Counted from the stretch's first letter, positions 11,154-31,965 are shown. The stretch: 64,000 nucleotides of DNA from Acidobacteriota bacterium (GCA_016184115.1 JACPDH010000050.1:1701-65700); one strand, 5' to 3'. Notes: generated by a model from the letters alone, not told the origin. Numbers and translations: made by a program.

Positions 11154-11961
11154 GCCCGTCAATATCGATGCGCCCCAGCTTGGAGACTCTCTTGGAGCCG
11201 AGTTGCGGAAGCAGCGCGAGATTCGCCACGTCACGCTGAAAGAGATCGCCGACGCAACGAAGATCAGTAAACGCTATCTCGAGGCGCTGGAGCAGGATGA
11301 CTACTCAGGACTTCCCGCCCCGGTGTTCACGCGCGGGTTCGTGCGCGAGTACGCCCGCTACCTCGGCCTGAACGCCGAAGAGATGGCCGCGCGCTACTCC
11401 CAGCTCGTCGGCGCACAACCGGAGACATCTTCGACTCCCGTGCTGCCCCAGACGGAGAAGAAAGCGGAGGGACTTCCCTTCGTCAGGATCGACCGGAACA
11501 TCGTCGGTTTCGCCGCGCTGCTCGTCGTGTTTGGAGCGGTCATGTGGTGGCTCGGAGGGCGCGCAGACCAGCGAAGGCGGGCGGCGACGCCACAGGTGAC
11601 GGCGACCGCGGTTGCGCCTGCGGTGGCGCCGGTTGTCGTGACCGAACCAGTCGTCAGCGCGACAGCACCAGCGGAGTCGTCCGACAGGCTCGAGCTCGAC
11701 GTCAAGGTGATCGAAGACACTTGGGTGATCCTCCAGGTCGATGGCCAGCCCGCGTTGAACCAGGTGCTGCGAGCTGGAGAGACGAGAAAGCTCGAGGCGG
11801 AGAACGAGATTCGTTTCGAGGTCGTCGGAAACGCGGGAGGTCTCGAGCTGACGCTCAATGGTCACCGGGTGCCCGCGATGGGACCGCGCGGCAAAGTCGT
11901 GCGCGGGTTTGGACTGGATTGGGAAGCGCTGAAGCGACTCGAAGGCGGTACGACTCCATGA
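11134..11961 (+). CDS. RodZ-like HTH membrane protein (XRE HTH + TM + DUF4115-like C-terminus)
   Basis: HTH segment LRKQREIRHVTLKEIADATKISKRYLEALE, one TM helix, and a C-terminal LELDVKVIEDTWVILQVDG...LELTLNG. Start at 11134 or 11146; the upstream part of the track ORF was rejected. Confidence 0.7.
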   Translation: MAGRMDEPVNIDAPQLGDSLGAELRKQREIRHVTLKEIADATKISKRYLEALEQDDYSGLPAPVFTRGFVREYARYLGLNAEEMAARYSQLVGAQPETSSTPVLPQTEKKAEGLPFVRIDRNIVGFAALLVVFGAVMWWLGGRADQRRRAATPQVTATAVAPAVAPVVVTEPVVSATAPAESSDRLELDVKVIEDTWVILQVDGQPALNQVLRAGETRKLEAENEIRFEVVGNAGGLELTLNGHRVPAMGPRGKVVRGFGLDWEALKRLEGGTTP

Positions 11962-16482: not shown

Positions 16483-16583
16483 ATCCCATTCTGTGGCGCG
16501 CGCCGCCGCGCTCGCGATTCGCCCGCGACGAAGGAGCTGTTGTAGAATACCGCTGTGTGAGGGTGTGTCGGGTGCGTAGGGTC

Positions 16584-18419
16584 ATGCTGTCCGTCGCGAT
16601 CGCGATGTTTGCCGCGACAGCGGGTGCGGCAGCTCCGCGTCTGAAGGCCATTGTCGAACCGGGCATCGACGCTGTCGTTACATCCGAGCTTCAGATTGAG
16701 CTCGCCGTGTCTCCGCGGCGCTCCGAGGCGTTTTCGACACTTGCCCGGCGGATCACCGGCGACGGCGCGAACTGGAAGGTACTCGCCGAGCTCAATGATC
16801 TTGGTTCCAATCTGCTTCTCGACCGCCGTGTCCGCGTTCCGCTCTCCCTCGTTAGGCCGAAGCTGCAACGCGCGACGATGGACTCGCTCTTCACCCACGA
16901 CCACGCATCCGAGGCTGGTTGGCTCCACCGCGTGACGACAGGTAATACCGTGGAAGGCGAGCCGCTTTGGAAGATCGCGGAGTGGTTTACCGGCGACGGC
17001 GCGAACTACTCTGCGATTCGCGCTGCGAATGGGCGTCAGCAGCTTTCAACCAGGCCGGGTGAGGTCATCCTGGTTCCCGCGTCGCTGTTGTCCGAAGCGT
17101 ACCGCTGGTCGGGGCCGGCGAAAAACGCGCGGCTACCCGAACCGTCGATTGCCGAAGACGATCCCCCCGTCGCACCCGTCGATACGGTCTCTGCCCTCGA
17201 CATGCCGTCTACCTCGCCAACGATCGAGCTTGCCGCGACGAGAACGATCGAGCCTGCCTCGCTGCGCTACGTCCGGACTGGCGAGCGACCGTTTGCAACG
17301 TACAGGTTGAAGAAAGGTGAGGCACTCTACTCGTCCGTCGTCATCCGATTCACCGGCCGGCTTTTCGCGAAGGATGTCAATGAGGTCGTCGACCAGCTCG
17401 TCGCATTTAACGGCATCGCCGATGTATCGAAGCTGCCGGTCGGATACGACGTGAGAATCCCGGTGGATCTTCTCCTGCCGGAGTATCGCCCCCTCGATGA
17501 TCCGCGCCGCGTCGAGATGGAGCAGGTACGCCGCGAGAGCGCGAAGCTCACGCGGCGCGTCGAGGCGAGGAACCTCGAAGGGGTGCACGTCATCCTCGAC
17601 GCGGGCCACGGCGGGCGCGACGTCGGAACGGAGCACAAAGGTATCTGGGAGTCGAGCTACGTTTACGACGTTACCTGCCGTCTCAAGAAGCGCCTCGAAG
17701 AGACGAGCGGCGCAAAGGTCTACCTCACGACGAAGTCGACGTCGAACGGCTGCAAGATTCAGAGTCGCGACAAGCTGAAGAACTACACCGACCACCAGGT
17801 GCTGACGACACCTGCGTACCCGCTCGAGGATTCGATCGTCGGAGTGAACCTCCGCTGGTATCTCGCGAACTCCATCTTCCGCAAAGCGTCGAAGAAGGGC
17901 GAGCCGGAGAAGGTACTGTTTCTCTCGATTCACGCCGACTCCCTCCATCCGTCGATCCGAGGCGCGATGGCCTATGTTCCAGGCGCGCGCTTTACGAAAG
18001 GGACCTTCCAGAAATCGGGTGCGATCTACCTCGCGCGCGCCGAGGTGAAGGAAAACCCCGTCGTGATGCACTCGAAGGAAGATGCACTCCATGCCGAAGG
18101 GCTGTCGACCGAGCTCGCCGAGGCGATCATTGGCGAATTCGGCGAGGCAGGGCTCGGGGTACACCCCTTCAACCCGGTGCGCGACAACGTCGTGCGAGGG
18201 GGGAGGGAGTGGGTTCCCGCGGTGATCCGCTACAACAGCGTGCCGACCCGAGTGCTGCTCGAGATCTGCAACCTCGGGAACGCCGAGGATCGCACGCAGA
18301 TCCAGACACGGAAAAACCGCGATGCGATCGCCTCCGCGATCCATGATGGGATCGTCGCCTACTTCGGCGCGAAGGGGAGCGACGACTCCCGGAGCGTCAT
18401 GACGGTCGCGGGACGCTGA
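16584..18419 (+). CDS. N-acetylmuramoyl-L-alanine amidase with LysM-like repeats
   Basis: Signal peptide MLSVAIAMFAATAGAAA, LysM-like segments, and Amidase_3 motifs VILDAGHGGRDVGT and LFLSIHADS. The upstream 459 codons of the track ORF were rejected. Confidence 0.8.
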   Translation: MLSVAIAMFAATAGAAAPRLKAIVEPGIDAVVTSELQIELAVSPRRSEAFSTLARRITGDGANWKVLAELNDLGSNLLLDRRVRVPLSLVRPKLQRATMDSLFTHDHASEAGWLHRVTTGNTVEGEPLWKIAEWFTGDGANYSAIRAANGRQQLSTRPGEVILVPASLLSEAYRWSGPAKNARLPEPSIAEDDPPVAPVDTVSALDMPSTSPTIELAATRTIEPASLRYVRTGERPFATYRLKKGEALYSSVVIRFTGRLFAKDVNEVVDQLVAFNGIADVSKLPVGYDVRIPVDLLLPEYRPLDDPRRVEMEQVRRESAKLTRRVEARNLEGVHVILDAGHGGRDVGTEHKGIWESSYVYDVTCRLKKRLEETSGAKVYLTTKSTSNGCKIQSRDKLKNYTDHQVLTTPAYPLEDSIVGVNLRWYLANSIFRKASKKGEPEKVLFLSIHADSLHPSIRGAMAYVPGARFTKGTFQKSGAIYLARAEVKENPVVMHSKEDALHAEGLSTELAEAIIGEFGEAGLGVHPFNPVRDNVVRGGREWVPAVIRYNSVPTRVLLEICNLGNAEDRTQIQTRKNRDAIASAIHDGIVAYFGAKGSDDSRSVMTVAGR

Positions 18420-18498: not shown

Positions 18499-18972
18499 GT
18501 GACTGCTCTTTTTACGACGATTGAGGGAGATACGGCGGCGGAAGGACTCCGCGTCGCCGTGGTCGCGAGCCGCTTCAACGACGAGATCGTCTCCGCGCTG
18601 CTCGACGGGGCGGCCGACTGTCTTGCCCGGCACGGGGCGAAAACGGACGACGTGACGATCTATCGCGTGCCGGGAGCATTCGAGATCCCGCAGGCGGTGT
18701 CAAGAATCGGCCGTAAGGGAGAGCTCGATGCAGTGGTCACGCTCGGCGCACTGGTGCGCGGCGAGACGCCTCACTTCGAGCTCATCTCGGCCCAGGTCAC
18801 GGACGAGCTGTCGCGCGTCGCGCGCGAGCTCGGGATTCCGGTCGCGTTCGGCGTGATCACCTGCAACACCATGGAGCAGGCGGTTGCGAGAACGCAAAAG
18901 GGAAGCAACAAGGGCTGGGAAGCGGCGCTCGCCGCCATTGAGATGGCGAACCTCTACCGCAGGCTGGCTTAG
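18499..18972 (+). CDS. ribH: 6,7-dimethyl-8-ribityllumazine synthase
   Basis: VVASRFNDEI...VPGAFEIP...LGALVRGETPHFE. Confidence 0.9.
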   Translation: MTALFTTIEGDTAAEGLRVAVVASRFNDEIVSALLDGAADCLARHGAKTDDVTIYRVPGAFEIPQAVSRIGRKGELDAVVTLGALVRGETPHFELISAQVTDELSRVARELGIPVAFGVITCNTMEQAVARTQKGSNKGWEAALAAIEMANLYRRLA

Positions 18973-18989
18973 GGAGCGGGAGATTCGAC

Positions 18990-19400
18990 ATGGGTGCCCG
19001 ACGCAAGGCAAGAGAGCTCGCTCTGCAAATGCTCTTCCAGCACGATGTTGCTGGCAACGATCCCGATGAGATCATCGAGACGTTCGAGGATATTCAGCGC
19101 GTTCGACCGAACATCCGCGAGTTTGCGATTCGGGTCTTTCGCGGCACGCTCGAGAAGCAGGCCGAAATCGACACGATCGTCGTCGAGCAAACCGAGAACT
19201 GGCGAATCGAACGTATGCCCGTCGTCGATCGCAATCTGATCCGGATGGCGATCTACGAGATGAAGTACCTCGACGACACGCCGAAGCTCGTCATCCTCGA
19301 CGAGGCGATCGAGATCGCGAAGCGATTCGGAACGAACAAGTCGTCGCAGTTCATCAACGGAATACTCGACGGCGTCTTGAAACGCTACAATCTGGTCTGA
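18990..19400 (+). CDS. nusB: transcription antitermination factor NusB
   Basis: RRKARELALQMLFQ...VDRNLIRMAIYE...FINGILD, in the conserved ribH-nusB order. Confidence 0.9.
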   Translation: MGARRKARELALQMLFQHDVAGNDPDEIIETFEDIQRVRPNIREFAIRVFRGTLEKQAEIDTIVVEQTENWRIERMPVVDRNLIRMAIYEMKYLDDTPKLVILDEAIEIAKRFGTNKSSQFINGILDGVLKRYNLV

Positions 19401-19478: not shown

Positions 19479-21434
19479 TTGAGCCTTCTGGGGCGTCTCG
19501 AAGATCTGTCCCTGACAGACATCGTTCAGATCGTTTTCCTCAGCAGGAGAACGGGCGTCCTCGAGATCATCGATTCTCGCGGCCGTCATTCGGTGATGTT
19601 CCAGCAAGGGCTCATCGTCAACGCGACCTCGCCGAAGACTCCCGACCTCGGCGCCTATCTGCTCGCATGCGGCATGGTCGATGCCGCCACGCTTCAGACG
19701 ATGAAGCAGGCCGAGGATTCAGGAATCCCCCTTGGCACCGCGGTCATCGACATGAATGTCGTGACGGTCGACGCCTTGTCGGACGCGATCCGGCTCCACG
19801 TCCTCGATGTGATGACGCCCCTTCTCTCGAGTCGCGATGGCGAATTCAACTTCATCCTGAGTGAATCGCTCACGGCACTCGACATCGAGTACGAGCCTCA
19901 GCGCATCTTCAAGGAAGGGGGAATCGCTCCGGCGAGAATCCTGGGAGAAGGCGAGAAGCTCAAGCCGTTGAAAGGTCTCGAAGACTCGATGCGCGCCGGC
20001 AAGGAGCTGCTTCGCGGCAACGTGGCGCAGACGACTCCACCAGGCCGTCTCGACCTCACGATGACCGAGGCGCCCCCCGCCCCCAGGTTTGCTCCGCTGC
20101 CGCCGTCGCCGATGGAGCCGCCCGACCTTTCGGAGAACGAGCTGGCCTCGATCGACGACGAGCCGTTCGACCTCGGGCTCGACGCCGCGCTCGAGGCGAT
20201 GGCGCCAACGCCAGGAACGCGTGGCGCGGAGCCGGCTGCTGCTCCTCTCGAGTCTCTCGTCGACTCGGTGCTCGAGCCTCCAGTCACTCCCGAGCCTCCC
20301 GTCGCGGAACTGCCGGCCGACGCAAGGCCTGTTGATTCCTTACCCGCGTCGCACCCTGACGTCGTAGCGCCGAGAGGACCAGCGACCGAGTTTCGAATCA
20401 CCGAGCAGCCACCGATCCAGGACATGGAGCGCGTCGTCGTTCTCTATCAGCAGGACCCGCTGCTCCGCGTCTCGGCACGACGAGCCTTTACCCGGCGCGG
20501 AATGACGACTGCACAGTACGGGGCGATGGAGGATGCCCGCGACGAAGTCGTCGAGCTCTTGAAGAAGAATCGATTCTTCGTGACGTTTCTCGATCTGGGC
20601 CCGCCATCGGGAGGTGGCACTGGTGAGGTGTTGCAGCTGCTCGCGCAGGTCAAAAGGCGGAATCACCGGCTCCCGGTCGTGGTGATCGACCGCGTGGCCG
20701 ATCTCCGCCGCCGTCACGATCTGCTCAAGAGCGGCGCCGACCTCTACCTCACGAAGCCTGCCGAAGGACATCTTCAGCCCGGCATGGTCGAGGAACAGCT
20801 CGCACTCTTCGCCGACGAGCTCGTGCTGTTCGCACAACGCGCCTTCGCCGAGCAGATCGAAGCAGGGGGAGGCGATCCCGATGCGTCGTACCAGATCTCG
20901 GCGCAGGAGAAGAGCGAGCGGAATTCGCAGGTCCTCATGCAGCTGATCAATGAGCTGAGCGACCCGAACGATATCAGCCAGGTGTCGCAGACGATCTTGC
21001 GGCTGACCGGACAGTACCTGGAGCGAGGAGCGATCTTCGCCTCCGCGATGGTGCAGTATGTCGGCATTGGAGGCTTTGGGCCGACAGGCGGTGCGGGCGA
21101 CATGAATGAGCGCGCCCGCGGCATCAAAGTGGGGCGCAACGAGCCCTCGGTGCTCAAAGACGTGACCGAATCGAGGAAGCCGCACCGCGGCAAGCTGCGG
21201 AAGACAGACGCGAACGTGAGGCTGATCGGCGGGCTCGGAACGCTCATGCCGAGCGAGGTGCTCGTTCTCCCGATCCTGAATAAGGACGAAGTGGTCGGTA
21301 TACTCTACGCGGACAACGCGTCGAACCGCGCGCCGATCGAAGAAGTCGCCGGGTTGGAGATTTTCCTTTCGCAGGCGGGGTTCGCGCTTCGGAACGCGAT
21401 GATCGCGAACCGGGGCCGTTACGGGCTCGAATGA
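19479..21434 (+). CDS. DUF4388-like N-domain / degenerate receiver / C-terminal GAF protein
   Basis: N-terminus LEDLSLTDIVQIVFLSRRTGVLEI (DUF4388-type) and a long Pro-rich linker. The receiver-like fold has QQD in place of the DD pair but retains FLDLG and LYLTKP. GAF-like C-terminus. TTG start with GAGGAG upstream. Confidence 0.65.
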   Translation: MSLLGRLEDLSLTDIVQIVFLSRRTGVLEIIDSRGRHSVMFQQGLIVNATSPKTPDLGAYLLACGMVDAATLQTMKQAEDSGIPLGTAVIDMNVVTVDALSDAIRLHVLDVMTPLLSSRDGEFNFILSESLTALDIEYEPQRIFKEGGIAPARILGEGEKLKPLKGLEDSMRAGKELLRGNVAQTTPPGRLDLTMTEAPPAPRFAPLPPSPMEPPDLSENELASIDDEPFDLGLDAALEAMAPTPGTRGAEPAAAPLESLVDSVLEPPVTPEPPVAELPADARPVDSLPASHPDVVAPRGPATEFRITEQPPIQDMERVVVLYQQDPLLRVSARRAFTRRGMTTAQYGAMEDARDEVVELLKKNRFFVTFLDLGPPSGGGTGEVLQLLAQVKRRNHRLPVVVIDRVADLRRRHDLLKSGADLYLTKPAEGHLQPGMVEEQLALFADELVLFAQRAFAEQIEAGGGDPDASYQISAQEKSERNSQVLMQLINELSDPNDISQVSQTILRLTGQYLERGAIFASAMVQYVGIGGFGPTGGAGDMNERARGIKVGRNEPSVLKDVTESRKPHRGKLRKTDANVRLIGGLGTLMPSEVLVLPILNKDEVVGILYADNASNRAPIEEVAGLEIFLSQAGFALRNAMIANRGRYGLE

Positions 21435-21444
21435 GGCGGACAGA

Positions 21445-21828
21445 ATGAAGATACTCGTTGTTGAGGATTCGCCCTCGATGCGCGCGTACGTGACGACGCT
21501 CGTGGAGAGCTTTCACGACGAGGAAGAGGTTGAGATCGTCGAGGCCTCGAGCGGCTTCGAGGCGCTCAAGGTTCTGCCTCACCACAAGCTCGACGCAATC
21601 CTCACCGACATCAACATGCCCGACATCAACGGGCTCGAGCTCGTCAGCTTCATCAAGAACCACCCGGGATACAAAGCGATCCCGATCCTCGTGATTTCCA
21701 CCGAGTCGAGTGAGGAAGACCGGAAGCGCGCGGAGGCGCTCGGCGCCGAAGAGTACCTCGTGAAGCCGTTCGCGCCGGAGGACCTGCTCGACAAACTGCG
21801 TCGGCTGCTCGGGAAACCGTCCGCATGA
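21445..21828 (+). CDS. cheY: CheY-like single-domain response regulator
   Basis: Canonical receiver residues: LVVEDS, ILTDINMPDINGLE, VISTE, YLVKP. Confidence 0.85.
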   Translation: MKILVVEDSPSMRAYVTTLVESFHDEEEVEIVEASSGFEALKVLPHHKLDAILTDINMPDINGLELVSFIKNHPGYKAIPILVISTESSEEDRKRAEALGAEEYLVKPFAPEDLLDKLRRLLGKPSA

Positions 21829-23852
21829 CGAAAGACGACGATCGCGTCAAAGAGGAGTTCACGTCCGAAGCCGAAGAGCTTCTCGACGCGCTGTCGAACG
21901 ACCTGGTCGAGTTCGAGTCGCAGGGACGGAACGTCCGGCCCGAGCTCGTCAACAAGATTTTCCGTGAGATCCACTCGCTGAAGGGTCTTGCCGGGATGCT
22001 CGGCTTCGTCCAGATCTCCGAGCTCTCACACAATCTCGAGGACATGCTCGACAAGCTCCGGATGGGGAAGGTCGAGATCTCGCGTGATCTTCTCGACCTC
22101 CTTTACGACGCGGTCGACAGTCTCAACCGCCTCGTCATCGCGATCCACGATCCCGCGATGGAGGCGCTCGTCGATGTGCCGAAGCTGACGAGCCGCATTC
22201 ATGCGCTCGTCTCGCAAAAGGCTCCCGAGCAGAAAGGCGATCCACTCGCCGGGCTCGAGATCGACGAACAGACGCGCAAGTCGCTGACCGAGTACGAGGA
22301 GCACCGACTCGTCGAGAACGTCAAGAGCGGTCGTGCGATCTATCTCGTCGAAGTCACATTCGACTTCAGCGATTTCGACGAGAAGCTTCGCGCGATTACG
22401 GCCGCGCTCAGCCCGTTAGGCGAGGTGATCTCGACGCTTCCCGCGATCGATTCGAGCGGCGGAAACGGAATCTCGTTCCGCCTCCTCTACGGCTCCGACG
22501 CCGACAAGGCCGCAGTGATCGACACCGCGGGGCGGGAGGCGAACGTCCGTTCACTCCGCACGGGAGCTTCCGCTGTCGCGCCGGCGGACGAAGCCGTCGT
22601 CGCCGAACCGGGCGCCGAAGAGGACTTCACACTTCGATCGATGTCGCGCACGGTTCGCGTCGACATCGGCAAACTCGATCACGTGATGAACATCGTCGGC
22701 GAGCTGATCATCGAGAAGAACCACCTCGAGGGCGTTACGCGCACGCTTCAGCTCCAGAACCAGAGGATGGTCTCGCACGAGCTCGTGAAGATCTCCCGCA
22801 ACTTCGACCGGAAACTCAACGAGCTGCAGAAGTCGGTGATCGAGACGCGCATGGTGCCGATCGGGCAGATCTACTCGAAACTCGGCCGCACGGTCCGCAA
22901 GGTAGCGCGCGAGCTCCGGAAGGAGATCGATCTCGTTCTTCGGGGCGAGGATACCGAGCTCGACAAGATGATGGTCGAGCAGCTGACCGATCCGCTGATG
23001 CACATCATCCGCAACGCGATCGATCACGGGATCGAGCCACCCGAGCAGCGCGTCGCCGCGGGCAAGCCTGCGACTGCACGCGTCGTGCTCAACGCCTACC
23101 AGAAGGGGAACTCGGTCGTCATCGACGTGATCGACGATGGGCGTGGCATCGATCCCGAGAAGGTCAAGCAGGTTGCAGTCAAGCGTGGCCTCATGCAGCC
23201 GAAAGAGCAGATCGACCTGCCGCGCGCCTGCGAGCTTCTCTTCACTCCGGGCTTCTCGACGGCGGCGGAAGTGAGTGAGATCTCGGGACGCGGCGTCGGC
23301 CTCGATGTTGTTCGAAAGAACCTGCAGGAGCTCAAAGGCTCGATCGACATCATCTCCGACATCGGTAAGGGGTCGACGTTTCGGATCATGCTGCCGATCA
23401 CGCTCGCGATCATCCAGGCGCTCGTCGTGCGCGCCGGTGATGAGAACTTCGCGATTCCACTCACGTCGGTCGAGGAGTCACTCCGGATCCGCGGGCGCGA
23501 GATCACCACGGTCGAGAGACGCGAAGTCTTCAGCCTCCGGAACTTCGCGCTGCCGCTGCTGCGGCTCTCCGACGCGTTTCAGGTGCGCGACGGACGAGAC
23601 ACGAGCTCACCCGACACCAAGTGGTTCATCGTCGTCACGCGAGCCGGCGAGCGTATGGTCGGCATCCTCGTCGATGCACTCGTGCGGCAGCAGGAGATCG
23701 TCATCAAATCGATCGGTGACCGTCTCAAGGCGATTCCCGGGATTGCGGGGGCGACCGAGATCGGTGAGAACGAGATCATCCTCGTGGTCGACGTCGGTTC
23801 ACTGATTGACAACTACGGGCCGACCGCACGGATGGCTCGAAGCGGTCGCTAG
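21825..23852 (+). CDS. cheA: chemotaxis-type histidine kinase CheA
   Basis: HPt FREIHSLKGLAGMLGF, dimerisation region, HATPase boxes (HIIRNAIDHG, DDGRGID, GRGVGLDVV, GKGSTF) and a C-terminal CheW-like domain. ATGA overlap with cheY. Confidence 0.9.
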   Translation: MTKDDDRVKEEFTSEAEELLDALSNDLVEFESQGRNVRPELVNKIFREIHSLKGLAGMLGFVQISELSHNLEDMLDKLRMGKVEISRDLLDLLYDAVDSLNRLVIAIHDPAMEALVDVPKLTSRIHALVSQKAPEQKGDPLAGLEIDEQTRKSLTEYEEHRLVENVKSGRAIYLVEVTFDFSDFDEKLRAITAALSPLGEVISTLPAIDSSGGNGISFRLLYGSDADKAAVIDTAGREANVRSLRTGASAVAPADEAVVAEPGAEEDFTLRSMSRTVRVDIGKLDHVMNIVGELIIEKNHLEGVTRTLQLQNQRMVSHELVKISRNFDRKLNELQKSVIETRMVPIGQIYSKLGRTVRKVARELRKEIDLVLRGEDTELDKMMVEQLTDPLMHIIRNAIDHGIEPPEQRVAAGKPATARVVLNAYQKGNSVVIDVIDDGRGIDPEKVKQVAVKRGLMQPKEQIDLPRACELLFTPGFSTAAEVSEISGRGVGLDVVRKNLQELKGSIDIISDIGKGSTFRIMLPITLAIIQALVVRAGDENFAIPLTSVEESLRIRGREITTVERREVFSLRNFALPLLRLSDAFQVRDGRDTSSPDTKWFIVVTRAGERMVGILVDALVRQQEIVIKSIGDRLKAIPGIAGATEIGENEIILVVDVGSLIDNYGPTARMARSGR

Positions 23853-23855
23853 ACG

Positions 23856-24668
23856 ATGTTTCGCGAATTCTTCGGCTTCCGTCACAAGCCGTTCGGCAAG
23901 ACGCCGAACCCGGCGTTCCTTTACGAAAGCCCACAACATCGGGAGGCGCTCGCGCGGTTGGAGTACGCCGTCGAGGAGAAGGAGCTCGCTCTTCTCTGTG
24001 GCGACGTCGGTTCGGGCAAGACGACGCTCTCCCGCGCGCTGATCGACCGGATCGGCGAGGCGCGCCCCGTCATTCTCATCGTCAATCCGGCGCTCTCGCC
24101 CGCGCAACTGCTGCGCTCGATCGCTTCAGGGTTCGGCCTCACGCCGAAGCATCATCGCGCCGACCTGCTCGACCAGCTCTACACGAAGCTCTTCGAGCTC
24201 TACGAGAGCGGGCGCGAGCCGGTGCTGATCATCGATGAAGCGCAATTGATTCCGACGAAAGCGACCTTCGAGGAGATTCGCCTGCTGACGAACTTCCAGC
24301 TCGACGACGACAATCTCCTCTCCATCGTCCTAATCGGACAGCCCGAGCTCAAAGAGCGTCTCGGCCACCGCGCCTATCGGGCGCTGCGGCAGCGCATCGG
24401 AATCCAGTACTCGCTCTCTCCTCTATCCGAGGAAGAGACGGTGCGCTACGTCCAGCATCGCCTTCAGGTGGCGGGCGGCGGCACAAATCCCTTTACCATA
24501 GATGCAATGTCGGCGATCCACCGCTACAGTGAGGGGATTCCCCGCGTCATCAACACGCTTGCGACAACCGCGTTACTCGACGCGTTTGGCGATGAGTCGG
24601 TTACGATCGATGGCGCGAGGATCGCGGCCGCCGCGCGCGAGCACGGCCTCGACGGGAGACAGCGCTGA
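23856..24668 (+). CDS. ExeA/GspA/MshM-like AAA+ (AAA_22-type) ATPase
   Basis: FGF...PF N-terminus, Walker A GDVGSGKTT, Walker B LIIDEAQ, QPEL and GIPRVIN motifs typical of ExeA-like ATPases. Starts 3 nt after the cheA stop, and its stop overlaps the cheW start (TGATG). Confidence 0.75.
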   Translation: MFREFFGFRHKPFGKTPNPAFLYESPQHREALARLEYAVEEKELALLCGDVGSGKTTLSRALIDRIGEARPVILIVNPALSPAQLLRSIASGFGLTPKHHRADLLDQLYTKLFELYESGREPVLIIDEAQLIPTKATFEEIRLLTNFQLDDDNLLSIVLIGQPELKERLGHRAYRALRQRIGIQYSLSPLSEEETVRYVQHRLQVAGGGTNPFTIDAMSAIHRYSEGIPRVINTLATTALLDAFGDESVTIDGARIAAAAREHGLDGRQR

Positions 24669-25537
24669 TGGTCGATCTCGTCAAGATTCGGAAGAAGGCG
24701 AAGAACGCGAAAGAGCCCGCGCCCGAGGTGGCCGAGGCTCCGCCTGTCGCAGTGGGCGCACAGCCTGCCGCGACGCCCGTGACTCCTCCCGCCGTCGCGC
24801 CGCCGTCACCCGACGAATCCGAGCCGGCGGCGACGATTGACGTTGAGCCTGCACCGCTCTCTCCCCCACAGCCGGCGCCCGCGTCGGCGAAACCGAAGAA
24901 GCAGCCGAAGGCCGCGCCGAAGGAGCAGGCACCCGTGCCGCCTCCGCGCGAGGAGTCCCCTCCGACACCGAGTCGGGCAGAAGCTCCTCTTCTCGAGCCC
25001 GAGGACGCAGGCGAAGACCGGCTCGTGAGGTTCAAGCGGCTCGCAGGGAAGCGGCGCAGTTGGGGAGCGGCTTCGAAGGCAGCGGGGCAGGAGGAGACGG
25101 CAGCAGCAGAAGGCGACCTCGAGCTGTTGCGCTTCCGCGTGGCGGGGGAAGACTACGCGGTCGACATCGACAAGATTGTCGAGATCGTGCCACCACGCGC
25201 CACGACACGAGTTCCGAACGCCGACGATGCGATCGTGGGCATCATGTCACTTCGCGGTACGATCGTCACGGTGATCGACTTGCGGCGAAAACTGGGCCAC
25301 CCGAGGGTCGATCTCGACACGCTGAAGGATGCAAGGATGATCGTCGTCGAGCGTGCCGGCGAGACCGCAGGCTTCCTCGTCGACAGGGTGTCTCGCGTCG
25401 TAAAGCTCGATCGCGGTCAGATCGAGAGCCACCCGGTCGTCAGCTCGCAGGAACAGAGCGAGTACGTCTCGGGCGTCTTCCAGTCGAATGACGGTTTGGT
25501 CATCCTCCTCGACATTGAGAGAATACTGGCAGGGTAG
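24668..25537 (+). CDS. cheW: CheW coupling protein with Pro/Ala-rich N-terminal extension
   Basis: The C-terminal ~150 aa is CheW-like (LLRFRVAGEDYAVDIDKIVEIV...SLRGTIVTVIDLRR...GLVILLDI). The N-terminal ~130 aa is low-complexity P/A/E-rich. Confidence 0.8.
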   Translation: MVDLVKIRKKAKNAKEPAPEVAEAPPVAVGAQPAATPVTPPAVAPPSPDESEPAATIDVEPAPLSPPQPAPASAKPKKQPKAAPKEQAPVPPPREESPPTPSRAEAPLLEPEDAGEDRLVRFKRLAGKRRSWGAASKAAGQEETAAAEGDLELLRFRVAGEDYAVDIDKIVEIVPPRATTRVPNADDAIVGIMSLRGTIVTVIDLRRKLGHPRVDLDTLKDARMIVVERAGETAGFLVDRVSRVVKLDRGQIESHPVVSSQEQSEYVSGVFQSNDGLVILLDIERILAG

Positions 25538-25550
25538 GCAACGCACCTTC

Positions 25551-26387
25551 ATGGAAATCACCTGCAAGCAGTGCTCGGCAACGTATCGAGTCAACGTGCA
25601 GCTGCCGCTGACCGGTCCGGTCAGGGTCGCATGTCCGTCGTGCGGGAAGCAGAAGACGTTGCGTCCGGTCGCCGCGGAGCCCGCCGGAGCGGGAAGTGCC
25701 GCGCCTGCGCCACGACCGTCCGGAAGGCGACGGAACGCGGTCATCGCGGACGAGCCACGACCGTTCCGCGAGTTCCTCGTTGCCGAGCTCAGCAAGCTCG
25801 GCTTCGAGCCTCACGTCTTCGAGACGGGCGACAAGGCACTCGAGCGCGTGCGCGAGACGGGCGCGGAGCTCGTGATCCTCAATGTCTACCTGCGTGGCAA
25901 GCTCGGCGTGGAGATCTCCGAAGAGATCAAGGCCGACCCTGATCTGAAGCACTCGAAGGTCGTGCTCATCGGCGCACTCTTCCGCGCAAACCGTTTCCGT
26001 GCGAATCCGACGAATCTCTACGGCGCCGACGAGTACATCGAGGAACAGATCCCGGCGGTCGAGTTTCACCGGATCGTTCGTAAGCTCTTCCCATCGGTGA
26101 GCGACCACGAGGAACCGGAACCTCGCGAGTACGACGAGGCGAAGCGCCTCGCGCGCCTGATCCTCTCCGACATCATCATTTACAACGCGGAGAAAGTAGA
26201 GCGCGGCATCCGCGAAGGTACCTTCTTCGAGCTTCTCCGCGCGGAGATCGAAGACGGTCGCAACTACTACGAGAGCCGTGTGCCTTTCAAGGTCCGCCAG
26301 CGCACCGAGTTCTTCCACGAGACGCTGCAGCATTTCGTCGAAATGAAGCGCGAGGAAGTACTCGGGCCGCGACGAGCGGAAGCGTGA
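25551..26387 (+). CDS. zinc-ribbon + degenerate (pseudo-)receiver protein
   Basis: MEITCKQCSATYRV...VACPSCGKQ zinc ribbon. The receiver-like fold has N at the phospho-Asp position (LVILNVYL) and no conserved KP. Conserved-looking helical C-terminus. Confidence 0.6.
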   Translation: MEITCKQCSATYRVNVQLPLTGPVRVACPSCGKQKTLRPVAAEPAGAGSAAPAPRPSGRRRNAVIADEPRPFREFLVAELSKLGFEPHVFETGDKALERVRETGAELVILNVYLRGKLGVEISEEIKADPDLKHSKVVLIGALFRANRFRANPTNLYGADEYIEEQIPAVEFHRIVRKLFPSVSDHEEPEPREYDEAKRLARLILSDIIIYNAEKVERGIREGTFFELLRAEIEDGRNYYESRVPFKVRQRTEFFHETLQHFVEMKREEVLGPRRAEA

Positions 26388-26391
26388 CGCG

Positions 26392-28617
26392 ATGACGATC
26401 GATCCCCAACTGCTCGAGCAGGCCCGGTCGGCGGATTCCGACGCGCGCCACCGTGTCGCCGCGACCGTCGCGAAGAGCGACGACGGCGAGCATCTCGCAC
26501 TCGCATTCGAGCTTCTGGGCGACCGTGACTGGCGCGTTCGGAAGGCGATCGTCGAGGGGTTCCTGCAGCACACATCGGATGACATCATCCGCGGCTTGAT
26601 CCTCGCGCTTCACGATGACGCGAATGCGGGTAAGCGCAACTCCGCGACCGAGGCGCTCATTCGGATCGGTCAGCGCAGCCTCGAGATCATCCTGCGTGAG
26701 TTTCACCAGGAGCGCGATCCCGACGTCCGGCTCTCACTCGTCAATCTGCTCGGCGACCTCCGGAGCGACGACGGCCTTACATTGCTTCTCCACGTTCTCG
26801 ATGGCGAGGATGACATCAACGTACTCTCCTCGGCGGTCGCGTCGGTCGGCAAGTATCGCGACTCGCGCACGATCTCGAAGCTTCTCCAACTTCTCGGTCG
26901 CGACGATCTCTGGCTGAAGTTTCACGTCGTCGAGGCACTCGGACACATTGGCGACCGTGCGGCGTTGCCGTCGATCCTGCCTCTATACGCGGAGCCGTCG
27001 TTGCGCAAACCGGTGCTCGAGGCGATCGGACGCATCGCCGACGTCGGAACGGTCAACTTCCTGCTCCGGATCCTCAACGAGGAGTCGAAGCTCAACCTGA
27101 CCGCGCTTCGTGCGCTGATTCGCATCGCCCGCTCCGACAAGCCTCGCGTAATCGAGGCCGCGGAGAGGCAGATCATTCAGAGGATGTTCCGCGAGGCGTT
27201 CCCGAAGACCAAGATCGACGCGCTCGTCGACCACCTCGTGTCGACGCCAAAGCGCGACGTGAAAAACTTCATTCTGACGTTCCTTGGCTGGTCGGGCGAT
27301 GTGAGAGCGACGCACCCGCTTCTCGACCACCTCCAGCAGCCTGAGAGCGCCGACCTGGCCGCACAGGCGTTGATCGACCTCGGCGCCGTCGCGTCGCAGC
27401 AGGTGCTCGAAGCGTTGCAGAACAGCGACGACGACGAGATCACAGCGCTACTGATTCGCATCGTGAACATGGCGGGAGGCCCGGAGGCGATTCCGACGAT
27501 CCTCCAGTTCCTCGACCACGACAACTCCATGATCCGGAGGCTCGCGATCGAAGCTCTCGGCGAGATCCTCGATCCCGGCACGGTCGATTACCTCCTCGTC
27601 AAGCTCGACGATCCCGACGTCGCCTGCCAGCAGGCGGCGGTGAACTCCACTTCGGCGCTCGTCGCCGCGTTCCCGGAGATCAAAGCGGACACGCTCGCGA
27701 AGATCCGGCGCCTGCTCGGCTCGAATAACGTCCCGACGAAGCTCAACTCCCTGTCGATCTACGTCAACATCCAGGGCGAGGGCTATCACGACGAGCTTCT
27801 GCTCGCGTCGAAGGACGAGGACGCCGTGATCCGGCAGAAGGCGATCTCGCTGATGGGGAAGTTCAGCGACGAGCGTTTTGCCGACACGATGGTGCTATCC
27901 CTTGCCGACGAGTCGACCACAGTTCGTCTCGCGGCGATCGAGGCCATCCAGACGCTGAAGCCGGAGACGGGCCTGGCACCGCTGATCTCGTCGCTCGAGG
28001 ACACAGACATCTGGCTCCGCACGGCGGCGGCGCAGGCGCTCGGCGAGTACCGCGACGCGGCGATCGTCGAGCCCCTTGTGAGGCACCTCGAGACCGACGT
28101 GACCCCGGTGAAGATTGCCGTGATCGACGCCCTCGGCAAGTCGGAGAGCGAAGGCGCGCGCGACGCATTGCTGCAGCGGCTCGACGAGTCGGACATCGAG
28201 ATCCGTAAGGCGGCGATTCTGGCGCTTTCGCGGATTCCGGGCGAGACCATCTTCGAACGGCTCTCGGGCTTTCTGCTCGATCCTGATTGGCGGCTCCGCG
28301 CCGCCGCGGCGCTTGCGCTCGGGCAACGCGGGGACGAGCGGGCGCTCGGCGCGCTCCACCATGCGATGGAGACGGATCCCGACACCTTCGTGCGGCAATC
28401 GGTCGTCGCCGGCCTGGAGAAAATGGCGAGCCGCTCGTCGTTCCCGTATCTACTCGCGGCGATCGAGGATCAGGCTGTCCTCGACGAGATCTCCCACATG
28501 TTCGTGAAGCACAAGGAGAGCTACAGGGACCTTCTCGAAGATGCGTGGCGTCACGCCGGGAGCCGGCACGAGGTGATCATCGCGGCGATCCTTCAGTCGA
28601 TGCGAGCGACGGTGTGA
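26392..28617 (+). CDS. 741-aa HEAT-repeat (PBS-lyase-type) protein
   Basis: About 20 repeats of the D-x-x-V/I-R-x-x-A-x-x-A-L-G pattern (e.g. DWRLRAAAALALGQRGD, DIWLRTAAAQALGEY, DIEIRKAAILALSRI). Confidence 0.8.
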   Translation: MTIDPQLLEQARSADSDARHRVAATVAKSDDGEHLALAFELLGDRDWRVRKAIVEGFLQHTSDDIIRGLILALHDDANAGKRNSATEALIRIGQRSLEIILREFHQERDPDVRLSLVNLLGDLRSDDGLTLLLHVLDGEDDINVLSSAVASVGKYRDSRTISKLLQLLGRDDLWLKFHVVEALGHIGDRAALPSILPLYAEPSLRKPVLEAIGRIADVGTVNFLLRILNEESKLNLTALRALIRIARSDKPRVIEAAERQIIQRMFREAFPKTKIDALVDHLVSTPKRDVKNFILTFLGWSGDVRATHPLLDHLQQPESADLAAQALIDLGAVASQQVLEALQNSDDDEITALLIRIVNMAGGPEAIPTILQFLDHDNSMIRRLAIEALGEILDPGTVDYLLVKLDDPDVACQQAAVNSTSALVAAFPEIKADTLAKIRRLLGSNNVPTKLNSLSIYVNIQGEGYHDELLLASKDEDAVIRQKAISLMGKFSDERFADTMVLSLADESTTVRLAAIEAIQTLKPETGLAPLISSLEDTDIWLRTAAAQALGEYRDAAIVEPLVRHLETDVTPVKIAVIDALGKSESEGARDALLQRLDESDIEIRKAAILALSRIPGETIFERLSGFLLDPDWRLRAAAALALGQRGDERALGALHHAMETDPDTFVRQSVVAGLEKMASRSSFPYLLAAIEDQAVLDEISHMFVKHKESYRDLLEDAWRHAGSRHEVIIAAILQSMRATV

Positions 28618-28678
28618 GGCGAGCGCCGAGCCCTGGGGCCGACGCGCGGCCTCAGATCCCGGCACTTGGACGACCTGG

Positions 28679-29533
28679 ATGACTAGCGGATTCAACTTGG
28701 GGCTGAACCACCACCTCGATCTGCCGGACGACGTGTTCCGGCAGATGCGGGACGCGATCTACGCGCGCAGTGGCCTCTGGTTTGCCGAAACGTCGAAGTA
28801 CCTCCTGCAAAAGCGGCTCTCACCCAGGGCCCGCGAGCTCAACTTCGACTCGTTTCAGAAGTACTTCTATTTCCTTCAATACGATCCGCGAGCTGCGGCG
28901 GAGTTCGACCACATCTTCGATCTCGTCACCACGAACGAGACCTACTTCTTCCGCGAGCCGGCGCAGCTATCGGCCTTCATCGACGAGATCGTCCCGGAGC
29001 TGATCGCGGCGCGGCAAGTCAAGAAGGTTCGCATCTGGAGCGCTGGCTGCTCCTCAGGCGAGGAGCCATACACGATCGCGATGCTCCTCACCGAGCGCGG
29101 ATACTACGAACAGGCAGCGTTCGAGATATTCGCGAGCGACATTAATCAACAGGTCCTGTCGAAGGCTCGCAAGGGTCACTATCGCGAGAACGCATTTCGC
29201 GCCACGACACCCGAGCTGCGAGAGAAGTACTTCGCAAGAGAGGCCGACGGTTCGTGGCGTGTCGTGGACAGCATCAAGAACAAGGTCTCGTTCGGGCGGC
29301 TCAATCTCTACGACGCGTCGCGTGTTGCGCTCCTCGGTTATCTCGACATCATCTTTTGCCGGAACGTGATCATCTACTTCGACGACTCGTCGAAGAAGGT
29401 GGTGGTGGGGAACTTCTACGGGCGGCTGAACGTCGGCGGCTACCTGCTGCTCGGACATTCTGAATCGTTGATTTCCCTCTCGAGCCAGTTCAAGCTGAAG
29501 CACCTGAAGAACGACATGGTCTACCAGAAGTAA
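28679..29533 (+). CDS. cheR: CheR-type protein-glutamate O-methyltransferase
   Basis: TNETYFFRE, IWSAGCSSGEEPYTIAM, IFCRNVIIYF. Confidence 0.9.
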   Translation: MTSGFNLGLNHHLDLPDDVFRQMRDAIYARSGLWFAETSKYLLQKRLSPRARELNFDSFQKYFYFLQYDPRAAAEFDHIFDLVTTNETYFFREPAQLSAFIDEIVPELIAARQVKKVRIWSAGCSSGEEPYTIAMLLTERGYYEQAAFEIFASDINQQVLSKARKGHYRENAFRATTPELREKYFAREADGSWRVVDSIKNKVSFGRLNLYDASRVALLGYLDIIFCRNVIIYFDDSSKKVVVGNFYGRLNVGGYLLLGHSESLISLSSQFKLKHLKNDMVYQK

Positions 29534-29555
29534 CGGGAGGAAGGGCCCGCGACTC

Positions 29556-30590
29556 TTGATTCGAGCCATAGTCATCGACGACTCCGCGTACAACCGCGTG
29601 ACGATCTCCAGGCTTCTGGAGAAGCAGGGCGACGTTCGCGTGGTCGCAACCGCGGTCAATGGCGAAGACGGGATCAAGCAGGTCCTCAAGCACAAGCCCG
29701 ACGTCATCACGCTCGACCTCGAGATGCCGCTGCTCGACGGCTTTGCCTTCCTGCGCTGGCTCATGGCGAACAACCCGACCCCGGTCATCGTCGTTTCCTC
29801 GCGCGCGAGCGATCGCAGTGTGTTCAAGGCACTCGAATTCGGCGCAGTCGACTTCATCGCCAAGCCCGGCGGCCGCGTCTCCTCGAAGCTCGAAGAGATC
29901 GAACGCGATCTGATCGCCAAGGTGCGTCAGTGCGCCGAGGTGAAGCTCGAGAATGTGAAGTCGAGAATCGTCGAAGAGACGAAGCCGGAGGAACCTCGAC
30001 CGATGGTGGCGGGGCGCGCGGTCGATCTCATCACGATCGGCGCATCGACCGGCGGCCCTCCCGCGCTGCAACTCGTCTTCCAGAAGCTCCCTCTGATGCG
30101 AGTGCCAATCGTCGTGGCGCAACACATGCCGCCTACGTTCACGAGGCTCTTCGCGGAGCGCGTCGACCGGCTCACACAGTACAAGGTCAAAGAGGCCGAG
30201 AACGGAGAGGCGCTCGTGCCAGGTGTCGTTTACATCGGTCCCGGCGGGCGGCAGACCGAAGTCGTCCGCAACGGCGACGTCCTGAGGATCCGCCTCGCCG
30301 ACAAGGCGGGGGACGACCTCTATGCGCCTTCGGTCAATCGGCTCTTCGATTCAGCAAGTGATGCATGTGGCGACCGGCTGCTTGCGATCATCCTCACGGG
30401 TATGGGCGACGACGGATCGATCGCGATCAAAAAAGTCGCAGCGCGCGGCGGAAAGACCGTTGCCGAGGCCGCGGAAACAGCGGTGATCTTCGGAATGCCT
30501 GGGGAGGCAATCCGTACCGGAGTCGTGCAAAAGGTGCTCCCTCTCCCCGAGATTCCGGACGCAATCTTCGAAATCTGCACCACCGCCTGA
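29556..30590 (+). CDS. cheB: CheB-type protein-glutamate methylesterase (receiver + esterase)
   Basis: Receiver (VIDDS, ITLDLEMP, DFIAKP) plus esterase (IGASTGGP, QHMP, LTGMGDDG). TTG start. Confidence 0.9.
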   Translation: MIRAIVIDDSAYNRVTISRLLEKQGDVRVVATAVNGEDGIKQVLKHKPDVITLDLEMPLLDGFAFLRWLMANNPTPVIVVSSRASDRSVFKALEFGAVDFIAKPGGRVSSKLEEIERDLIAKVRQCAEVKLENVKSRIVEETKPEEPRPMVAGRAVDLITIGASTGGPPALQLVFQKLPLMRVPIVVAQHMPPTFTRLFAERVDRLTQYKVKEAENGEALVPGVVYIGPGGRQTEVVRNGDVLRIRLADKAGDDLYAPSVNRLFDSASDACGDRLLAIILTGMGDDGSIAIKKVAARGGKTVAEAAETAVIFGMPGEAIRTGVVQKVLPLPEIPDAIFEICTTA

Positions 30591-30650
30591 AGGCGCAGGG
30601 ATGGTTCGGGCGGTTCCAGTTGTGCTAGATTCTGCAAAAGGGCCGGACCG

Positions 30651-31469
30651 ATGACTACCGACGACTACAACCGTAAGGGTGAGAAGTTCCTCGAGCTCTT
30701 TAACAAGGGGAAGGAATTCACCGAGGAGCTCCTGAAGGAAAACCAGCGACTCCGCTATCGGCTTGCGTCGATGGAAGCGACCGGAACGCCAGTCGCGAAC
30801 CAGGAGGAGATCCAGCAGCTCCGGTCGCAGATCCAGAATCTTGCCGACGAGAATCGACGGCTTCACGAGCGCTTTCGCGAGGTTGAGGAAGAGAACAAGG
30901 ACTTCGCCTCACGCTACGTCGAGATCGAAGAGCAGAACAACAACCTCGCGAACCTCTACGTGGCGAGCTACCAGCTTCACTCCACGCTCGACTTCCGCGA
31001 GGTGATCCAGATCGTTCAGGAGATCGTGATCAACCTCGTCGGTGCGGAAGCGTTCGCGATTCTGCTTCTCGATGAGAAGACGAACGAGCTGAAGACGATC
31101 GCCTGCGAGGAGGAGAAGCCCTGGACGGGGCTCGAGAATCTCACCGTTCGCTGGGGCGAGGGAGTTCTCGGTAAGGTGGCAAAGAGCGGGGAAGCGTACT
31201 ACGTCAACCAGGACATCGAAGGTGGAGAGATCACGTTCGAGAAGCCGCTGGCGGCCGTTCCGCTCAAGATCAAAGAACACGTCATCGGGCTGATCGTGAT
31301 CTACAGCCTGCTGCAGCAGAAGGACTCGTTCTCCGCAGTCGATTACGAGCTCTTCTCGCTGCTCGCCGCGCACGCCGCGACGGCGATCTTCTCGTCGAAG
31401 CTCTATTCGCAGTCCGAGCGGAAGCTCAACACGATTCAGAGCTTCCTCGACCTGCTTACGACCACATAG
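30651..31469 (+). CDS. coiled-coil + GAF domain protein
   Basis: The N-terminal ~110 aa is heptad-rich and E/Q/N/R-rich coiled coil. The C-terminal domain is GAF-like (FREVIQIVQEIVINLVGAEAFAILLLD...VPLKIKEHVIGLIVIY). Confidence 0.7.
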   Translation: MTTDDYNRKGEKFLELFNKGKEFTEELLKENQRLRYRLASMEATGTPVANQEEIQQLRSQIQNLADENRRLHERFREVEEENKDFASRYVEIEEQNNNLANLYVASYQLHSTLDFREVIQIVQEIVINLVGAEAFAILLLDEKTNELKTIACEEEKPWTGLENLTVRWGEGVLGKVAKSGEAYYVNQDIEGGEITFEKPLAAVPLKIKEHVIGLIVIYSLLQQKDSFSAVDYELFSLLAAHAATAIFSSKLYSQSERKLNTIQSFLDLLTTT

Positions 31470-31517
31470 GATGCTGGAGCGCGAGGGCGCTCACGGAACC
31501 CGGGGTCAGAGGACCAG

Positions 31518-31907
31518 TTGATGGAAAATACAACGTTTCTCGTCGTAGAAGACTCGCCAACGATGAGACAGCTCATCTCGTTCTCGCTGAAGCGCTTCAA
31601 GAATGCGCGCATCATCGAGGCCGTCGATGGCGTCGATGCGCTGAAGAAGCTCTCCGGCGAAAGAATTGACCTGATCCTCACCGACATCAACATGCCGGTC
31701 ATGGATGGCCTCAAGCTCGTGTCGCTCGTCAGGCAGAACGCGCAGCTCCAGAGCATTCCGATCATCATCATCACCACGGAAGGCGCCGAGGAGGACCGCG
31801 AGCGCGGTCTCGCTCTCGGCGCCAACGCCTACATCTCGAAGCCCATCCAGTCGTCACACCTGATCAAGACGATCTCCGAGCTCCTCAGTACCGGCGCGAT
31901 CGGCTGA
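31518..31907 (+). CDS. CheY-like single-domain response regulator (second copy)
   Basis: LVVEDSPTMR, ILTDINMPVMDGL, IITTE, YISKP. Confidence 0.85.
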   Translation: MMENTTFLVVEDSPTMRQLISFSLKRFKNARIIEAVDGVDALKKLSGERIDLILTDINMPVMDGLKLVSLVRQNAQLQSIPIIIITTEGAEEDRERGLALGANAYISKPIQSSHLIKTISELLSTGAIG

Positions 31908-31930
31908 GGCTCACTCCCGCCGCGTGAATC

Positions 31931-31965
31931 AACGCCCGCCCTGGACGAGGCGGGCGTTTCGTTTC
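31931..31965 (+). terminator. rho-independent terminator ending the Che-like operon
   Basis: Perfect 10-bp stem AACGCCCGCC/GGCGGGCGTT with an 8-nt loop, followed by TCGTTTC. Confidence 0.7.

Follow-up and report, generated by a model that had tools for sequence, protein, structure and literature searches.

The beta-group che clusters described by Tran et al. (2008) contain cheA, cheW, cheR and cheB without a gene for a methyl-accepting chemotaxis protein (MCP) and are conserved in Geobacter, Anaeromyxobacter, Stigmatella, Plesiocystis and Myxococcus xanthus, and MCP genes are often dispersed in genomes with many receptors (PMC2577667). In Geobacter sulfurreducens, GSU2220 encodes the CheW protein EsnB, GSU2221 an ATPase and GSU2222 the CheA protein EsnC (Chan et al. 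2017; PMC5585712), followed by a CheY (GSU2223), a response regulator (GSU2224) and EngA (GSU2225) (PMC8242959). Transposon sequencing (Tn-seq) insertions in GSU2220, GSU2221 and GSU2222 impaired growth on electrodes, deletion of esnA, esnB, esnC or esnD led to poorer electrode colonisation, and the unlinked GAF-containing MCP EsnA (GSU1704) associated with EsnB and EsnC in two-hybrid assays; a link of the Esn phenotype to cyclic di-GMP and biofilm growth was proposed (PMC5585712). The present analysis concerns an eleven-gene che operon without an MCP gene, located at 19479-31907 on the plus strand of a 64-kb stretch of Acidobacteriota DNA (GCA_016184115.1, JACPDH010000050.1:1701-65700; hereafter the window). 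Its genes, g1 to g11, encode in this order a PATAN-degenerate receiver-GAF protein, a CheY, a CheA, an ExeA-like AAA+ ATPase, a CheW, a Zn-ribbon-pseudo-receiver-RomX-fold protein, a HEAT-repeat protein, CheR, CheB, a coiled-coil-GAF protein and a second CheY. The operon is probably the Thermoanaerobaculia (Acidobacteriota) version of the delta-proteobacterial beta-group cluster, a widespread chemosensory type that belongs to the 'alternative cellular function' pathways.

The connection with Geobacter came from a homologue search with a deltaproteobacterial protein, which led to proteins named Desulfuromonas and Desulfuromonadaceae 'ATPase'. A Desulfuromonas metagenome-assembled genome (MAG) contains in succession the genes of Era, EngA, a PatA_N-receiver (REC) protein, CheY, CheA, an AAA_22 ATPase, CheW, a REC protein, another CheW, a Zn-ribbon-REC protein, a HEAT protein, CheR, CheB, a GAF protein and CheY. 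All eleven window genes have counterparts in this locus in the same order, with 25-63% identity between the proteins, and no MCP gene is present in it. The order EngA-response regulator-CheY-CheA-ATPase-CheW is identical to that published for GSU2225-2220. We infer that GSU2212-2224, which includes EsnB and EsnC, is the Geobacter member of the beta group. The original prediction could not match the gene combination to any described system, a statement that no longer stands in view of the GSU2220-2225 order reproduced by the collinear Desulfuromonas locus and of the beta-group cluster to which this order presumably belongs (PMC2577667).

Within Thermoanaerobaculia the eleven genes make up a single block of conserved order. 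At E<1e-10 the ATPase g4 retrieved more than 6,800 homologues, the best of them named Thermoanaerobaculia, and a scan of GTDB species genomes with the ATPase alignment found a relative in at least 571 genomes, from which the best 80 were kept as loci L004-L083. All 80 genomes belong to Thermoanaerobaculia/Acidobacteriota, the closest relative among them being 94% identical. In 80 of the 80 loci, whichever of the genes are present follow the order of the window, and all eleven are found in 26 of them, a conservation of order far beyond chance. Median identities over the 80 loci are highest for g11 (93%), followed by g8 and g10 (79% each), g2 (77%), g3 and g4 (71% each), g9 (65%), g7 (64%), g6 (61%), g5 (50%) and g1 (49%). 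The constant core consists of g3-g8, the only part that is invariably contiguous in the Thermoanaerobaculia loci; g1-g2 are split off before g3 in L011 and L022, and g9-g11 after g8 in L029, L039 and L083. The genes in the split loci code for Usp, radical SAM, Na/H exchanger, FG-GAP/Ig and DyP peroxidase proteins, and because these gap genes are unrelated the variants, which lack g1-g2 or g9-g11 at the locus, were read as synteny breaks rather than as new partners or alternative architectures. The genes ribH and nusB immediately precede the che block in about 48 of the loci.

Beyond this class, the 50%-identity representatives of the ATPase were used to select contigs from other phyla for inspection. 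A Deltaproteobacteria MAG (L084) shows the identical eleven-gene order, again with no MCP in the locus, and carries ribH-nusB upstream at 3528-4421 with two genes between nusB and the che cluster. The gene-neighbourhood conservation that the original prediction had proposed to examine from the ExeA-like ATPase extends from the 80 acidobacterial loci to the Deltaproteobacteria and Desulfuromonas MAGs. A JGI metagenome contig keeps the order and has an extra CheW gene and a gene for a 784-aa HAMP-containing MCP inserted after CheW. Another contig (L087), with an ATPase that falls into one cluster with a protein of Thermodesulfovibrionales (Nitrospirota), reads PatA_N-CheY-CheA-AAA_22-CheW-MCP-PBP-MCP-CheW-HEAT-CheR-CheB. 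One in-cluster MCP of this contig (7906-10755) matches the Pfam Mcp40H-20_sensor together with a phosphonate-binding (PBP) domain, and a separate PBP_like_2 gene comes after it; these domains hint at the kind of ligand sensed by the cluster type in that lineage. A further relative has a shuffled gene order and three MCPs of the short class. Altogether, the collinear clusters in other phyla either lack an MCP as well or contain MCPs of the long class to which EsnA belongs. The smallest arrangement was seen in a 2.16-Mb genome (CP070682.1, 8231-10810), where a CheA without Hpt domain and, directly after it, an AAA_22 ATPase with 56% identity to g4 stand as a pair among unrelated genes; the pairing of CheA and ATPase may be the ancestral core.

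The compact arrangement of the window operon agrees with transcription as one unit. An open reading frame (ORF) scan recovered all eleven closely packed ORFs at the coordinates given by the original prediction, and the overlaps and closing hairpin that it had described were confirmed, with a single revision at the start of g6. The junctions from g1-g2 to g4-g5 measure 10, -4 (ATGA), 3 and -1 (TGATG) nt, and those from g6-g7 to g10-g11 measure 4, 61, 22, 60 and 48 nt. For g5-g6, the longest g6 ORF (start 25488) gives an overlap of 50 nt and the ATG at 25551 a gap of 13 nt. The latter (MEITCKQC..., 278 aa) is most likely the true start, since 25551 is also the start in gene calls made independently on three Logan metagenome contigs with identical proteins. 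A GAGGAG Shine-Dalgarno sequence lies 5' of the TTG start of g1 (19479). Downstream of g11, an intrinsic-terminator-like hairpin (31931-31965, plus strand) with a GC stem of 9-10 bp closes the unit; it consists of ACGCCCGCC-N8-GGCGGGCGU, then UUCGUUUC, with a free energy of -21.1 kcal/mol (z = -3.15), and was missed by a consensus terminator scan because its T-tract is interrupted. The conserved upstream neighbours ribH and nusB (18499-19400, plus strand; Pfam DMRL_synthase and NusB) end 78 nt before g1, and no plus-strand terminator-like site was predicted in this short gap, so read-through from nusB into g1 is possible. Long antisense ORFs within the operon, such as 25500-26588 on the minus strand, were discarded as high-GC artefacts.

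The domain assignments of the original prediction were borne out for all eleven proteins by Pfam and NCBIfam. CheA, both CheYs, CheB, CheR and the AAA+ ATPase retain all catalytic residues. The CheA protein g3 (21825-23852, plus strand, as are all genes of the operon) contains P1, P3, P4 and P5, with Hpt, H-kinase_dim, HATPase_c and CheW matches above the Pfam cut-offs and no Pfam match for P2; all 73 orthologues compared keep its phospho-accepting H50 (HSLKG motif), and it shares 45% identity with the Desulfuromonas CheA. The first CheY-type single-domain response regulator, g2 (21445-21828; REC, 98 bits), keeps E12/D13/D57/S87/Y106/K109, its phospho-acceptor Asp being invariant in 53 of 53 orthologues. 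The second, g11 (31518-31907; REC, 98 bits), also has all catalytic residues (D13, D57, S/T87 and K109, as in g2) and is the best-conserved member of the operon, being 89-99% identical between species of Thermoanaerobaculia and 63-68% identical between phyla. Its median identity of 93%, compared with 71% for CheA and 77% for the other CheY, suggests docking on a strongly constrained partner. The CheW protein g5 (24668-25537) bears a proline/alanine-rich N-terminal extension of about 150 aa, which is of low complexity and little conserved, before the CheW domain (residues 152-287, 124 bits); the Desulfuromonas counterpart is also long (273 aa). The methyltransferase CheR (g8, 28679-29533; CheR_N and CheR, 200 bits) lacks tetratricopeptide repeats, and 68-69 of 69 orthologues share its motif residues. 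The methylesterase CheB (g9, 29556-30590) combines REC and CheB_methylest domains and scores 357 bits against the NCBIfam CheB model (cut-off 293); S164, H190 and D286 are invariant across orthologues, and its phosphorylatable receiver, like those of g2 and g11, is fully canonical. Orthologue comparison placed both CheR and CheB, with their intact active sites, under strong purifying selection.

The accessory proteins are less conventional. The 651-aa protein g1 (19479-21434) consists of an N-terminal PATAN domain (DUF4388/PatA_N; Pfam DUF4388, 64 bits), a proline-rich linker, a degenerate receiver and a GAF domain. Its REC (29.6 bits) and GAF (21.2 bits) matches are each slightly below the Pfam cut-off; the C-terminus was nevertheless accepted as GAF, as the isolated domain reaches 24.7 bits against a cut-off of 22.4 and 10 of 13 orthologues match GAF_2. 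In the receiver, QQ replaces D12/D13 and T87 is changed to D, with D57 and K109 kept. In position, g1 corresponds to the PatA_N-REC gene of Desulfuromonas and to the GSU2224 'response regulator'. PatA-type (PATAN-REC) regulators have a phosphorylatable receiver behind an N-terminal PATAN domain; in g1 the PATAN domain is followed by a receiver that retains D57 and K109 but not the acidic pair, and then by the additional GAF domain. The other GAF protein, g10 (30651-31469; 272 aa), carries coiled-coil-type matches N-terminally and a GAF domain (GAF_3, 58.7 bits; GAF_2, 50 bits), with 56% identity to its Desulfuromonas counterpart. A 741-aa protein made of HEAT/PBS-lyase-like repeats is encoded by g7 (26392-28617; HEAT_2, 263 bits in 11 stretches; HEAT_PBS); its nearest NCBIfam families, NblB and CpcE, score under their cut-offs, and a HEAT protein takes the same slot in all related clusters examined.

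The stand-alone ATPase g4 (23856-24668; 270 aa; AAA_22, 87 bits) occupies the slot of the GSU2221 'ATPase'. All 87 homologues compared share its Walker A lysine (K55) and Walker B residues (D127/E128). The AlphaFold2 model (mean predicted local distance difference test, pLDDT, 89.8) is nearest in fold to MuB, TnsC, ORC/Cdc6 and RuvB, which are ATP-dependent oligomerising loaders or matchmakers. Source records name homologues of g4 'ExeA', and ExeA/GspA and the PEP-CTERM ATPase TIGR03015 belong to the same AAA_22 family. Unlike these, g4 is an ATPase domain only, without a peptidoglycan-binding C-terminus, and no ExeB or type II secretion system, exopolysaccharide (EPS) or PEP-CTERM context was found near it. 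Considering its score against TIGR03015 (238 bits, cut-off 324) and its che-gene context, identification of g4 as TIGR03015 or as ExeA proper was rejected.

The 278-aa protein g6 (25551-26387; Zn_ribbon_4, TIGR02098 and a weak REC match) joins a Zn-ribbon of the MJ0042 type, a pseudo-receiver with D57->N and K109->E, and a C-terminal three-helix domain of about 72 aa that matches the RomX structure PDB 8ZNA (E=3.7e-13). Residues R11, R14 and D19 of RomX helix 1, which contact MglA-GTP (bioRxiv 10.1101/2024.02.20.581209), are conserved as RLARxIxSD in the g6 orthologues. Uncharacterised 'Zn-finger + REC + RomX-like' regulators had already been pointed out, with a Desulfuromonas protein as the example (bioRxiv 10.1101/2024.02.20.581209); the RomX-fold domain in g6 of this che operon is a new detail relative to the original prediction. 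The RomR/RomX module of M. xanthus has the RomX three-helix domain in common with g6 over a 72-residue alignment, but g6 is a fusion within a che operon, with no separate RomR and no MglA or MglB nearby. Since only the RomX domain is shared and g6 has its own fused pseudo-receiver (D57N), it was not taken for a RomR/RomX module.

These features suggest the following path. One or more unlinked MCPs of the long class would assemble with CheW (g5) and CheA (g3), and CheA would autophosphorylate on H50 and pass the phosphate to both CheYs (g2 and g11) and CheB, with CheR and CheB adapting the receptor. Both CheYs would act through binding partners encoded in the operon instead of a flagellar motor; the HEAT protein g7 and the RomX-fold domain of g6 may be adaptors that bind CheY or REC domains, and the PATAN domain of g1 may serve for output or localisation. 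The GAF domains of g1 and g10 could confer modulation by cytoplasmic small molecules, and the AAA+ protein g4, always beside CheA, might be an ATP-dependent factor for assembling or positioning the signalling complex or array. By analogy with Geobacter, the output is likely control of how the cells behave at surfaces (attachment, matrix, biofilm or pilus-type polarity). The view of the original prediction that this is a Che-derived, non-flagellar pathway with conserved AAA+, HEAT, GAF and pseudo-receiver partners is supported, and output through protein-protein contacts, which it had also suggested, is probable. No flagellar, pilus or CheZ/C/D/X/V domain was found among the approximately 40 other ORFs of the window.

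The presence of PATAN and RomX-fold domains together with two CheYs raised a narrower alternative, namely a strict motility or polarity controller that would steer type IV pili or an MglA-like GTPase polarity module, comparable to Tax in cyanobacteria and Frz/RomRX in M. xanthus. PATAN has been described as an output domain that binds the pilus motor proteins PilB1/PilC in Synechocystis (bioRxiv 10.1101/2021.06.11.447907), but no pilus, gliding, Ras-like GTPase or Roadblock gene was detected in the window or the fetched flanks, the search for MglA being a weak test. The conserved MglA-GTP-contacting residues of helix 1 would fit such a controller, although the motif may be merely structural. 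The 89-99% identity of g11 across species is as expected for docking on a very conserved machine, yet the published Geobacter phenotype is a defect in electrode colonisation and not in motility. A controller restricted to motility or polarity is considered unlikely.

A second alternative, put forward in the original prediction, is a cytoplasmic Che machine without receptor, in which the GAF domains of g1 and g10 would provide the input to CheA/CheW, CheR/CheB would act on a non-MCP substrate, and HEAT and AAA+ proteins would deliver the output. The absence of an MCP on which it was based was upheld for the window: tblastn over the 64 kb was negative with seven queries, namely the signalling domain of Tsr and six MCPs that belong to related clusters, and the six MCPs detected one another. 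Receptors were likewise missing from the 80 related loci and from the Deltaproteobacteria and Desulfuromonas loci; however, the same MCP-less cluster type in Geobacter is reported to use an unlinked MCP, and MCP genes are commonly scattered in receptor-rich genomes (PMC2577667). The conservation of two GAF proteins in the block would suit a cytoplasmic input, but collinear clusters that do contain MCPs still have the PatA_N/GAF-type first gene, and one of them (L085) also the coiled-coil-GAF gene, so these proteins are not substitutes for a receptor. The Hpt-less CheA and AAA_22 pair that stands alone in another genome would suit such a machine. Against it, CheR and CheB are strongly conserved with intact active sites.

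The class of the expected receptor can be narrowed by the relatives. When compared with the Geobacter MA-domain sequences in the supplement of Tran et al. (2008; PMC2577667), MCPs encoded within the collinear clusters aligned end to end with the EsnA-containing long-MA group (31-42% identity over about 380 aa) and clearly less well with the 34H and 36H receptors. A profile search with this EsnA-like long class returned matches named Nitrospirota, Geobacterales and Myxococcota; members of the class also occur as orphan genes, as seen in two matches on long contigs. Given the unlinked precedent in Geobacter, the collinear relatives with MCPs, the intact and conserved CheR/CheB and the orphan MCPs of the class, an unlinked receptor is the economical reading and seems far more likely for the window operon than a receptor-less machine. 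A receptor-less pathway with input through GAF domains, as suggested in the original prediction, is very improbable. Also very improbable is a secondary loss of the receptor in the Thermoanaerobaculia cluster, leaving a GAF-driven CheA-CheW, a MuB/TnsC/ORC-like AAA+ organiser, CheR/CheB on a non-MCP substrate and RomX-fold/HEAT/PATAN output to a polarity or surface-behaviour machine, which if true would make the cluster a chemosensory derivative that works without receptors and is conserved between phyla.

Several points weigh against assigning the operon to the beta-group type with an unlinked receptor. Neither the window nor the 10 kb on each side in the 80 related genomes yielded an MCP by tblastn, and the profile search with the EsnA-like class gave no match named Thermoanaerobaculia among the top 120, which is a weak negative because only about a quarter of the proteins are named; this absence also suits the receptor-less alternatives. 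The window is connected with Geobacter by way of the Desulfuromonas MAG and the published gene numbering. In addition, cluster 5 of Tran et al. (2008) was equated with GSU2212-2224 from genome order, because the numbering of the clusters follows their genome positions and GSU3195-3202 make up cluster 6. Co-transcription of the eleven genes is presumed from their spacing alone, and the roles given to the AAA+, HEAT, RomX-fold, PATAN and GAF proteins are suggested by analogy. The beta-group assignment, with the receptor encoded elsewhere, nonetheless remains the probable one.

Outside the operon, the window has a housekeeping content: PrsW, tyrosyl-tRNA synthetase (TyrRS), DegT, RodZ, PP2C, an amidase, RibH, NusB, CtaA/CtaB, a MoxR-Bat operon, an AddAB-like pair and FtsY. 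A 497-aa ORF at 11544-13037 (plus strand), located by the genes of RodZ and the PP2C phosphatase, has no Pfam match, and a 1070-aa protein is encoded at 15207-18419 (plus strand), whose sole Pfam match is a C-terminal amidase_3 domain, leaving about 790 N-terminal residues without any match. A row of MoxR (AAA_3), DUF58, unknown, VWA, VWA and BatD genes at 40649-47503 (plus strand) represents an operon of the Bat/aerotolerance type. Two large overlapping genes at 49374-55564 (minus strand) form the AddAB/RecBCD-like pair; one codes for a UvrD-type helicase of 1099 aa that includes a PD-(D/E)XK nuclease, the other for a PD-(D/E)XK protein of 987 aa.

The window itself holds a signalling operon of a soil acidobacterium with housekeeping genes on both sides. 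Its cluster type was known already, though poorly understood, and what is new here is the occurrence in another phylum, Acidobacteriota, with a slightly reduced gene set. The type is much wider than the 'delta-proteobacterial' description of 2008, as at least 571 species genomes of GTDB carry the ATPase marker, clusters of the same order occur in Acidobacteriota, a Deltaproteobacteria MAG and a Desulfuromonas MAG, and a variant with inserted MCPs occurs in contig L087, the one with the ATPase related to Thermodesulfovibrionales (Nitrospirota). To our knowledge, the mechanism of the AAA+ ATPase, the HEAT protein, the Zn-ribbon-pseudo-receiver-RomX protein, the PATAN-pseudo-receiver-GAF protein or the coiled-coil-GAF protein has been established in no organism. 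Because Geobacter is genetically tractable, orthology makes these five accessory proteins testable candidates for the wiring of Che signalling to non-flagellar outputs. The RomX-fold domain in a che operon moreover joins two separately studied fields, Che signalling and polarity adaptors of the RomR/RomX type, and the importance of the locus rests mainly on this link and on the unexplained accessory set shared across phyla.

Among the che systems of M. xanthus, Che7 (CheY7-Mcp7-CheA7-CheW7-Cpc7-Des7-CheR7-CheB7) resembles the window operon in the HEAT/PBS-lyase-like protein between cheW and cheR, the position of g7, and in a CheA of P1, P3, P4 and P5 without fused receiver, like g3 (PMC3945109). 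The single-domain CheY7 binds the HEAT protein Cpc7 as the output (PMC11514114). Che7 differs in having its own cytoplasmic MCP (Mcp7) and a desaturase (Des7), both missing from the window operon by Pfam and tblastn, and its published gene list has no slot for an AAA+, PATAN, Zn-ribbon-REC-RomX or coiled-coil-GAF gene. Che8 (MXAN_4751-4759) is like the window in lacking an MCP in the cluster and a receiver in its CheA, and its order CheY-CheA-CheW-CheW-(two unlisted genes)-CheR-CheB-CheY is similar (PMC3945109), whereas its numbering, compared by gene list, has no room between CheA and CheW for an ATPase gene, nor ahead of the final CheY for a GAF gene. As the sole M. xanthus che cluster without MCP, Che8 is probably the beta-group member reported for this species by Tran et al. 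(2008).

The closest likeness is to the Geobacter beta-group/Esn cluster and its Desulfuromonas relative. Differences exist: Geobacter has the partner MCP EsnA and the output regulator EsnD, for which no counterparts were recognised for the window operon; the Desulfuromonas cluster has an extra REC and CheW pair, which the window does not; and the neighbours are ribH-nusB in the window, which is from a different phylum (Acidobacteriota), but era-engA in Desulfuromonas. Common to the window and the Geobacter cluster are cheA, cheW, cheR and cheB without an mcp, an ATPase gene between cheA and cheW, and a CheY and a large 'response regulator', of the PATAN type in Desulfuromonas, upstream of cheA. 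Downstream, the genes of the Zn-ribbon-REC, HEAT, CheR, CheB, GAF and CheY proteins agree in order and strand between the Desulfuromonas MAG and the window.

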